Positions 42 through 1,367 of a stretch of 10,187 bases of DNA are shown here, piece by piece. The DNA is taken from IMG/VR virus record IMGVR_UViG_2667527591_000022. One strand, given 5' to 3'. The notes under the pieces were generated by a model. That model was not told the origin of the DNA. It worked only from the letters and a program-made list of their open reading frames with translations, and made no database searches. The first letter of the stretch is position 1; every line of letters begins with the position of its first letter. This stretch comes from a virus. Lineage: Monodnaviria > Loebvirae > Hofneiviricota > Faserviricetes > Tubulavirales. The translations under genes were made by a program, and so were the position numbers.

Positions 42-1367
42 CCTCTCTGTTCATCCGTCAGACCTGCCAGTCCGGCAGGCAGGTGCAGTACATGGAAACA
101 AAGCACGGATTAAGCTGCGGTGCACACTACAGGGGAGCACGCTGTCAGCCATCAGTTTCATCAACAGGCAATTCCATCGCCTGTACGCGTCGGGTTCTGC
201 ACAGCCAGTAAGCTGGTTGCCTATGTCAGCAAAGAGCATAAGTGCCCGAAGCAGGCAGCAGAGCGTAAGTGCGCGGGGCCGGTAATGGTGCCTTTCCGCT
301 TCCTCGACCACTCGCTCACTGCGTTCGGTCGCTGGGTCTGCGGCGAGCGGTGCCATCACACGCGCAACTGAAGCATTCTGCCTCTCTGTTCATCCGTCAG
401 ACCTGCCAGTCCGGCAGGCAGGTGCAGTCCATGGAAACAAAGCACGGATTAAGCTGCGGTGCACACTACAGGGGAGCACGCTGTCAGCCATCAGTTTCAT
501 CAACAGGCAACACCATCGCCTGTACGCGTCGGGTTCTGCACAGCCAGTAAGCTGGTTGCCCATGTCAGCAAAGAGCATAAGTGCCCGAAGCAGGCAGCAG
601 AGCGTAAGTGCCCGGGACCGGTAATGGTGCCTTTCCGCTTCCTCGACCACTCGCTCACTGCGTTCGGTCGCTGGGTCTGCGGCGAGCGGTGCCATCACAC
701 GCGCAACTGAAGCATTCTGCCTCTCTGTTCATCCGTCAGACCTGCCAGTCCGGCAGGCAGGTGCAGTCCATGGAAACAAAGCACGGATTAAGCTGCGGTG
801 CACACTACAGGGGAGCACGCTGTCAGCCATCAGTTTCATCAACAGGCAACACCATCGCCTGTACGCGTCGGGTTCTGCACAGCCAGTAAGCTGGTTGCCC
901 ATGTCAGCAAAGAGCATAAGTGCCCGAAGCAGGCAGCAGAGCGTAAGTGCCCGGGACCGGTAATGGTGCCTTTCCGCTTCCTCGACCACTCGCTCACTGC
1001 GTTCGGTCGCTGGGTCTGCGGCGAGCGGTGCCATCACACGCGCAACTGAAGCATTCTGCCTCTCTGTTCATCCGTCAGACCTGCCAGTCCGGCAGGCAGG
1101 TGCAGTCCATGGAAACAAAGCACGGATTAAGCTGCGGTGCACACTACAGGGGAGCACGCTGTCAGCCATCAGTTTCATCAACAGGCAACACCATCGCCTG
1201 TACGCGTCGGGTTCTGCACAGCCAGTAAGCTGGTTGCCCATGTCAGCAAAGAGCATAAGTGCCCGAAGCAGGCAGCAGAGCGTAAGTGCCCGGGGCCGGT
1301 AATGGTGCCTTTCCTCTTCCTCGACCACTCGCTCACTACGTTCGATCGCTGGGTCTGCGGCGAGCGG
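42..1367. repeat. Direct tandem array of a 339-bp unit, about 3.9 copies; copies 2 and 3 are identical, the outer and phage-proximal copies carry a few substitutions
   Basis: Units recur at +339 (e.g. cctctctgttcatccgtcagacc at 42, 381, 720, 1059). The ORF track shows identical translations repeated at 339-nt offsets on both strands. Array ends at ...ctgcggcgagcgg (1367), 13 nt before the pI stop codon. Confidence 0.95.

Follow-up and report, generated by a model that had tools for sequence, protein, structure and literature searches.

A repeated element between the zot and pIV genes of an inovirus prophage

The stretch of DNA analysed here (the window; 10,187 nt, IMG/VR record IMGVR_UViG_2667527591_000022) is, from its sequence and the listing of its open reading frames (ORFs), an inovirus prophage, that is, the prophage of a filamentous phage with single-stranded DNA (ssDNA), and its phage gene set lies on the minus strand. 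A tandem prophage 98.5% identical to the window is present in Escherichia coli strain 100416 (NZ_CM128593), where RefSeq annotates a "zonular occludens toxin domain-containing protein", a "type II secretion system protein GspD" and a "replication endonuclease". Our subject is a conserved element located between the zot/pI and pIV genes, 3′ of zot and just upstream of pIV, all on the same strand. The window carries six copies of it (Table 1), and its homology to a site beside the ColE1/pMB1 plasmid origin suggests that it serves as a primosome assembly site.

An initial annotation had described a 57-bp segment repeated at six places, with the motif GAAGCGG on the complement. All six sites are real: those starting at 294, 633 and 972 are exact copies, and those at 1311, 9398 and 9737 carry 3, 2 and 1 substitutions, respectively. 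No copy of the 57-mer was found on the reverse strand of the window. The motif stands on the complement of five copies and is absent from the one at 1311, which reads GAAGAGG. Overall, GAAGCGG occurs seven times in the window, compared with 1.3 expected.

Table 1. Element copies, repeat arrays and phage genes of the window. For the elements, the strand is the one that carries GAAGCGG; R1 is the covariance model built in this work.
Feature	Coordinates	Strand	Basis and remarks
Copy 1	249..358, core 294-350	minus	R1, 96.3 bits, E = 1.3e-23; core identical to reference 57-mer
Copy 2	588..697, core 633-689	minus	R1, 98.4 bits
Copy 2, helices	P1 635-639/685-689; P2 645-648/674-677	plus-strand coordinates	read from sequence, backed by covariation
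Copy 2, downstream motif GAGCGTAAGTGCC	600-612		
Copy 3	927..1036, core 972-1028	minus	R1, 98.4 bits; exact core
Copy 4	1266..1375, core 1311-1367	minus	R1, 90.8 bits; three mismatches
Copy 5, native phage position	9356..9462, core 9398-9454	minus	R1, 97.1 bits
Copy 6	9692..9801, core 9737-9793	minus	R1, 97.0 bits; one mismatch
Left array of 339-bp tandem unit	42..1367		Tandem Repeats Finder; 3.9 copies, period 339, 98% matches
Right array of 339-bp unit	9398..9990		sequence and R1 hits; 1.75 copies, starts at core, stops at unit offset 167
zot/pI-like assembly ATPase gene, 403 aa	1381..2592	minus	ORF; annotation in the 98.5%-identical prophage
pIV-like secretin gene	8151..9359	minus	ORF; L001 carries the annotation "type II secretion system protein GspD"
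pVI-like gene and Gly-rich pIII-like gene		minus	ORF listing
Small major-coat gene and 141-aa ssDNA-binding-like gene		minus	ORF listing
Replication endonuclease gene, ~670-700 aa		minus	ORF listing

The segment is homologous to the origin-side site of ColE1/pMB1 plasmids

The initial annotation had put the segment at roughly 80% identity with a quoted pBR322/pUC sequence. The quoted sequence turned out to be exact, and a 129-nt extension of it is found at 100% identity in real pMB1-type plasmid records; matches were obtained in 3604 records overall. When the 339-bp repeat unit that carries the element was aligned with the pUC-type plasmid L004 by the Smith-Waterman method, 48 of 58 columns were identical with one gap (83%), over unit positions 253-310 and L004 positions 1133-1189. 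The alignment score was 69, against 23.0 ± 2.6 with a maximum of 40 for 200 shuffled units. The BLASTN search that had been proposed as a check, run with the unit against 72,556 plasmids, retrieved 3732 records with E-values down to 1e-18; among the matches listed, unit positions ~212-323 alone were covered, except in two plasmids that carry the entire unit. As had been noted, similarity over the remainder of the unit is weak: nothing else rises above noise, and the best reverse-strand score (20) falls under the shuffle mean. The model R1, built on the family, gives 83 bits to the pBR322-type site of L004 and 91-98 bits to the window copies.

In L004, Rfam places RNAI at 1757-1861 (+), so the segment at ~1133-1189 lies beyond the RNA/DNA switch. 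We take it to be pBR322 ~2354-2409, some 125-180 nt downstream of the switch, in pBR322 numbering (NdeI 2295, ori 2535). In the pUC-type loci L019 and L025, pMB1 DNA ends 6 nt past the element and ~185 nt beyond the RNA/DNA switch are retained; the element therefore fills the distal third of the ~185 nt able to hold the single-strand initiation site ssiA. This site, also called n'-pas, becomes exposed when Pol I extends from the ColE1 origin, and it recruits PriA for lagging-strand synthesis (PMC3167613, PMC3640518); pUC-type vectors contain it (PMC3167613). The segment, which the initial annotation had placed beside the origin and associated with a PriA-dependent primosome site, lies where the literature puts ssiA/n'-pas (PMC3167613).

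The element is a bipartite module with a covarying helix

IMG/VR was scanned for the two conserved arms of the element, one genome per species was scanned with a relaxed pattern, and plasmid loci were added, which together yielded ~38 distinct versions. The relaxed scan of genome contigs returned mostly chance matches in GC-rich genomes and pUC-type vector contamination, with ~17 useful variants. For instance, identical pUC-type vector sequence (the element, then the lac region) was encountered on short contigs at L050, L052, L056, L059, L073 and ~15 more loci, in such unrelated species as those of Lacinutrix, Runella, Moritella, Paracoccus and Bacillus, and is probably cloning-vector contamination of public assemblies. 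The covariance model R1 aligns 77 instances.

The functional unit has two parts and spans ~97 nt, more than the 57 bp initially delimited. On the GAAGCGG strand (minus in the window), its plan is 5′-CCGCT-CGCCGCA(R)-P2 5′ arm-variable interior-P2 3′ arm-GAGGA-AGCGG-AA-N20-22-GCAC(N3)ACGC, where the variable middle starts with G and ends with C. The 5-bp helix P1 (CCGCT/AGCGG) shows no variation among the model-aligned instances, and the internal loop, which is asymmetric, is likewise invariant. The exception for P1 is a RepE-linked copy that reads GTGCT...AGCAC, a double compensatory change and the only compensatory P1 variant seen.

The second helix, P2, varies extensively while its arms stay complementary. 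It reads GACC/GGTC in the window, GATC/GATC in L018, GCCC/GGGC in L003, GTTTAT/ATAAAC in L017, GTCTGT/ACAGAC in L029, GTCGAT/ATCGAC in L067, GTGTTGAT/GTCAACGC in L072, GATG.GAT/ATC.CATC in L005 and GAAGTGAT/ATCGCTTC in Vibrio phages (L006 type), and a further pair of versions opposes GAAG/CTTC to GATG/CATC. Over 22 sequence classes, none of 20,000 permutations of the 3′ arms matched the observed complementarity. All four modelled P2 pairs show compensatory changes in the R1 alignment, and the covariation score of P2 is 0.179; shuffles give 0.062, with 0/500 reaching the observed value, and slid controls give no more than 0.103. RNAalifold, applied to the model-fitted alignment, gave the invariant pairs alone, because the register of P2 shifts between classes. 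Furthermore, five G.T wobbles flanked by Watson-Crick pairs occur on the GAAGCGG strand and no mirror A.C pair does, which argues modestly for folding of the GAAGCGG strand and not of its complement.

A divergent copy (32 bits) was noticed at L293 5141-5288 (IMG/VR 2671180348_000001), with a 7-bp P2, GTTTGAA/TTCGAAC, containing one wobble, and an additional 40-nt hairpin inserted in the middle. It suggests that more inovirus lineages carry remodelled versions of the element.

The element follows zot in diverged inovirus lineages

Wherever a contig bears both zot and the element, GAAGCGG is on the zot strand (22/22). The element lies 4-94 nt past the zot stop codon, or 1246 nt past it in a lineage with a RefSeq-annotated traX between zot and the arrays. 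The zot proteins of the element-bearing lineages are highly diverged: those of E. coli and Vibrio have no mutual tblastn match at E <= 1e-6. Their Reps are also unrelated, being either a gpA-like "replication endonuclease" or RstA-like.

The element is present at 49 of 59 f237-like zot loci of IMG/VR, the ten others being truncated loci or more distant zot genes. In the Vibrio parahaemolyticus inoviruses V5 (OL512807) and vB_VpI_FR1 (OP628074, Villovirus), it scores 80.6 and 87.1 bits, respectively, on the coding strand just after zot, and neither record annotates it. All close relatives of the window phage that are sequenced past zot retain at least one intact copy. The contigs of four relatives in IMG/VR (L155, L156, L159, L161) stop exactly at the zot stop codon; assembly probably failed there because of either the repeated element or the array of 339-bp units.

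The same module adjoins unrelated plasmid replicons

In plasmids, the element adjoins replication modules of unrelated types, namely RNAII/RNAI origins, IncFIA RepE, small RepL plasmids and RepL/Rep3 genes. In a Klebsiella IncFIA/IncFII plasmid (L168), inverted copies at 3377-3483 and 4992-5099 flank repE; the scores of the pair are 73.6 and 46 bits, and the upstream copy is the one with P1 GTGCT/AGCAC. A plasmid-like region at L033 26-5279 (IMG/VR 2836755666_000005), and also L022, contains three RepL genes and one Rep3; at L033 the region adjoins ParM/StbB-type partition genes and an HU-like gene and carries the element four times clearly, with both orientations represented, and a fifth time as a weak match.

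A block of 97 bp is 96% identical in the RepL plasmid L002 and the inovirus L011, which have nothing else in common. This isolated block defines the limits of the module and shows plasmid-phage exchange. The module is thus portable and has been exchanged between plasmids and inoviruses.

Six copies arose with a tandem 339-bp unit

In the window, two arrays of a 339-bp unit flank the gene block. Each unit combines one element with a spacer of ~242 bp, which has neither plasmid homology nor a promoter-like site and whose fold is unremarkable (z = -0.44). In every unit, as at 572-587 and 599-614, the 16-nt downstream motif AGAGC(A/G)TAAGTGCCCG is duplicated, 27 nt apart. Among close relatives, L028, L031, L011 and L017 carry no extra units, while L018 and L024 carry one.

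Diverged 339-bp units reside in a second, traX-bearing inovirus lineage (L027/L030, L034 and a Proteus IncC plasmid, L311), and one E. coli genome holds 25 matches to the unit. L034 is E. coli NZ_AP027790.1, where the prophage lies between yhbO and yraR and has traX acetylase and IS110-family transposase genes; in this lineage (L034, L311) the units sit between pIV and traX/zot.

The copies at the array edges retain native phage sequence. Copy 5, on the pIV side, keeps the native 3′ half, which includes the GCACTTAAC motif and extends to the pIV start codon (9357-9359); its P2 is GATC/GGTC with a T.G wobble, and its flank recurs in the single-copy relatives L028 and L031. The zot-side copy, copy 4, keeps the native 5′ flank and begins 17 nt past the last zot codon. 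It is degenerate, since GAAGAGG breaks P1 and two more substitutions are present. With the native 3′ half and the native 5′ flank at opposite edges, the array sits inside the native core, which is the expected product of homologous recombination at the conserved core. Such recombination explains why the shared segment measures exactly 57 bp, its boundaries marking the part common to native and unit-borne copies. Likewise, the window has six copies because the element belongs to a tandem unit that recombined into the native one.

Could the element then be a functionless passenger, plasmid DNA gained by recombination and spread with the 339-bp unit? The near-identical 97-bp block in a plasmid and a phage, from which transfer appears to be recent in places, would fit this, as would a copy number of 1 to at least 6 among close relatives and the damage to one window copy. 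We nevertheless regard it as improbable, since the arms and loop are invariant and P2 is rebuilt by compensation in phage lineages whose zot genes are mutually unmatched, since position and strand are kept in all 22 contigs, and since every close relative extending past zot has an intact copy.

A packaging signal or a site-specific recombination site (attP/Xer) is an even more doubtful function for the element. Its hairpin is intergenic and lies on the presumed packaged strand, and it is at the element that the 339-bp arrays end; on the other hand, homologous recombination in the shared core accounts for these ends, thousands of plasmids contain this invariant sequence, and it also occurs in phages whose zot shares no detectable similarity with that of the window. 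Moreover, a far better candidate for both roles is a 95-nt near-perfect hairpin at 8005-8100, which closely follows pIV (minus strand, -40.2 kcal/mol, z = -11). The outer arms of this hairpin are dif-like (AGTGCGCATAATG..TTATGT), with 18/28 positions at 8070-8097 identical to E. coli dif. The inner stem, GC-rich and with T-runs, has the appearance of a two-way terminator, and the hairpin resembles the folded single-strand attP of CTXphi, used for XerCD integration, in addition to being a packaging-signal candidate. The best dif matches in the window are those at 8070-8097, outside the element, and a dif-site reading of the element was rejected.

The element is a probable primosome assembly site on the presumed packaged strand

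In L004, the element is on the strand opposite RNAI, i.e. the RNAII-sense, displaced strand that is the lagging-strand template. In the window, all six copies share the strand that encodes zot, pIV and rep. This coding strand is rich in T (30.5%, with A at 21.7%), as are the plus strands of M13, phiX174 and V5, and inoviruses package positive-sense ssDNA (PMC8491893). The GAAGCGG strand, which is the coding strand and corresponds to the lagging-strand template of ColE1, would therefore be the packaged one.

Which factor could read such an element? The adjacent initiators are unrelated (RNAII, RepE, RepL, Rep3, gpA-like, RstA-like) while P1 and the loop are invariant, so the partner should be a host factor, and homology to ssiA points to PriA. 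Four features of the ssiA family are found here, namely sequence homology, placement on the strand presumed to be exposed, secondary structure and the (G)AAGCGG motif (in five of six copies; also in pBR322 and in the phiX174 F-G region). We therefore consider it likely, judging from sequence, that the element is a PriA-type primosome assembly site of the ColE1 ssiA/n'-pas family and a putative complementary-strand origin. Taken together, the ssiA homology, the strand, its T-richness and the positive-sense packaging best support an origin of phiX174 type; PriA dependence is predicted from the homology, and a role in making the replicative form from the single strand is likewise predicted.

According to this model, the circular plus strand of the filamentous phage would enter the cell and be coated by SSB, while the element would remain folded. 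PriA would recognise the folded element and, with PriB and DnaT, load DnaB from DnaB-DnaC. DnaG would then prime, and Pol III would turn the single strand into the replicative form. The same element could prime every new single strand produced by rolling-circle replication.

A signal read by some other machinery appears unlikely, though it is the least improbable of the alternatives: DnaG alone (G4-type), RNA polymerase (Ff/Frpo-type), a DnaA-dependent "ABC" primosome, or a duplex-only fork-assembly site on replicative or prophage DNA. Indeed, the link to many replicon types shows a replication role and does not name PriA, and the GCAC..ACGC motif, conserved downstream of the core, may mark where a primer begins or provide another binding site. 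Against this stands the description of the pMB1 homologue as the PriA-dependent ssiA/n'-pas (PMC3167613). No DnaA box occurs in or near the copies; the sole TTWTNCACA match in the window, at 7060, is within the rep gene, and a DnaA-box reading was rejected. An Ff-type, RNA-polymerase-dependent origin also finds no support: no sigma-70 promoter-like site was found in the arrays or in window 351-1400, searches of a phage collection with the window gave no match to Ff-type or other filamentous phages, and M13, a user of the RNA polymerase route, lacks the element.

Alternatively, the structured segment could act at the RNA level, within a zot-pIV transcript, and regulate either pIV expression or the processing of the transcript. 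The sense strand carries the element, the 3′ half of the native copy stops at the pIV start codon, and both the covariation and the G.T wobbles suit RNA equally to ssDNA. We assign little probability to this explanation: the element-bearing Vibrio phages have no annotated pIV after the element, and the plasmid copies adjoin origins and have no common downstream gene. No U-tract follows the element, which is therefore not an intrinsic terminator, and Rfam at gathering thresholds gave no family match in the window or in two small plasmids.

Several observations weigh against a PriA-read complementary-strand origin. The phage 57-mer folds at -12.3 kcal/mol with z = -1.9, a marginal gain over shuffles, and with flanks z ranges from -0.09 to -2.6, as assessed on the 57-mer and 97-106-nt versions of both strands; the pBR322 homologue folds no better than shuffles (z = +0.96). 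A stable hairpin, the failure of which the initial annotation would have taken as refutation, is not diagnostic: since the pBR322 homologue, taken as ssiA, scores worse than shuffles, folding stability was dropped as a criterion, and it is covariation, not free energy, that reveals the helices. The element occurs in only 4 of 80 diverse inovirus zot loci, and M13 and If1, like phiX174, give no R1 match even with filters off; from its absence in M13, If1 and most diverse zot loci, the element is an option, not a requirement, for inoviruses. The assignment of the packaged strand comes from gene orientation and composition, and, with the element on the sense strand between zot and pIV, the strand arguments leave room for an RNA-level role. 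The zot-proximal copy is altered in the invariant motif (GAAGAGG), so at least that copy may be dead, though loss of the invariant G there is tolerable if the remaining copies are intact. Finally, the equation of the plasmid segment with ssiA comes from its position, from PMC3167613 and from the mapping reported in the 1980s.

Comparison with known priming sites

One of the closest known relatives of the element is ColE1/pMB1 ssiA (n'-pas, rriA; the "factor Y" site of the pBR322 L-strand). It shares P1, the internal loop, GAGGAAGCGGAA and 83% core identity with the window element, has a related CTTACGC motif at equal distance, and is also located on a strand that becomes single-stranded. It differs in working on the strand displaced in theta replication, ~125-180 nt from the RNAII origin, whereas the window belongs to an ssDNA phage and has six copies, located between zot and pIV. 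The pairing of P2 and the interior also differs, with GACC/GGTC in the window and weak GC..GC pairing in pBR322.

In the IncFIA RepE replicon, a plasmid replicon of iteron type and in this unlike the window, repE is bordered by two members of the family. A primosome assembly site of mini-F (F ssiA) was reportedly located at ori2/RepE by Imber, Low and Ray in 1983; the copies of L168 may correspond to this mapped F site.

Among filamentous phages, the complementary-strand origin of Ff (M13/f1/fd) has the same role in the life cycle as that proposed here, although M13 and If1 are without the element. At the Ff origin, host RNA polymerase acts on a promoter-like double hairpin. The phiX174 site, a hairpin of the F-G intergenic region, has the job proposed for our element, being a complementary-strand origin of an ssDNA phage that is read by PriA (PMC5778457). 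It shares only GAAGCGG and an AGCGG/CCGCT stem with our element, and the two arms come in the opposite order, GAAGCGG being part of the 5′ arm. The phiX174 site is no homologue in sequence: even unfiltered, the model search gave no match at E <= 10. V5 and vB_VpI_FR1, which are f237-like, differ from the window by their P2/interior (GAAGTGAT/ATCGCTTC), a single copy, no annotated pIV and a Rep of RstA type.

Other features of the window

Both ends of the window are unrelated to the phage. Positions 1-43 are 100% identical to terminase large-subunit genes of P2-like phages, and the end at 9991-10187 includes a part, 10000-10187, with 98.9% identity to the E. coli bssR gene. The two 339-bp arrays end at non-equivalent unit offsets, which, together with the unrelated ends, points to a rearranged locus or a chimeric assembly.

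Tandem repeats of 39/78 bp and 30 bp at 3464-3715, within the pIII-like gene, encode Gly/Ser/Pro-rich linkers. The length of this tract varies among relatives, and the pIII matches are split in L018 and L024. At 7486-7520, between the rep start and a divergent 62-aa gene (7563-7751), the 16-nt repeat TGCACAAATGCAATTG is present in 2.2 copies, a layout that looks like an operator for a repressor.

Implications for the replication of temperate filamentous phages

The textbook model of complementary-strand synthesis in filamentous phages is that of Ff phages and RNA polymerase. To our knowledge, the start of the complementary strand in temperate, chromosome-integrating filamentous phages is largely uncharacterised. 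Searches of a collection of open-access full texts returned no paper linking inoviruses with PriA or primosome assembly sites, although such a link may already be in print. A plasmid-type PriA site after zot offers a concrete candidate origin for E. coli inoviruses and for V. parahaemolyticus V5 and FR1, and this reading predicts a dependence on host priA, priB and dnaT. The covariance model is now available for annotating the site.

More broadly, the balance of the data leans slightly towards a ~97-nt primosome-loading cassette that circulates among mobile elements of Enterobacterales and Vibrionaceae (plasmids of ColE1, F, RepL and Rep3 type, together with four or more inovirus lineages) and serves these inoviruses as complementary-strand origin. 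The findings also reveal a discrete replication module that passes between plasmids and ssDNA phages. More speculatively, its tandem amplification, with six copies here and up to 25 unit matches in E. coli, may tune priming efficiency or titrate PriA. The mechanism itself is classical, and the useful part is a conserved, exchangeable module in temperate filamentous phages: if it is indeed their complementary-strand origin, a large group of them, including the f237-like phages, would depend on PriA like phiX174 and not on RNA polymerase like Ff.

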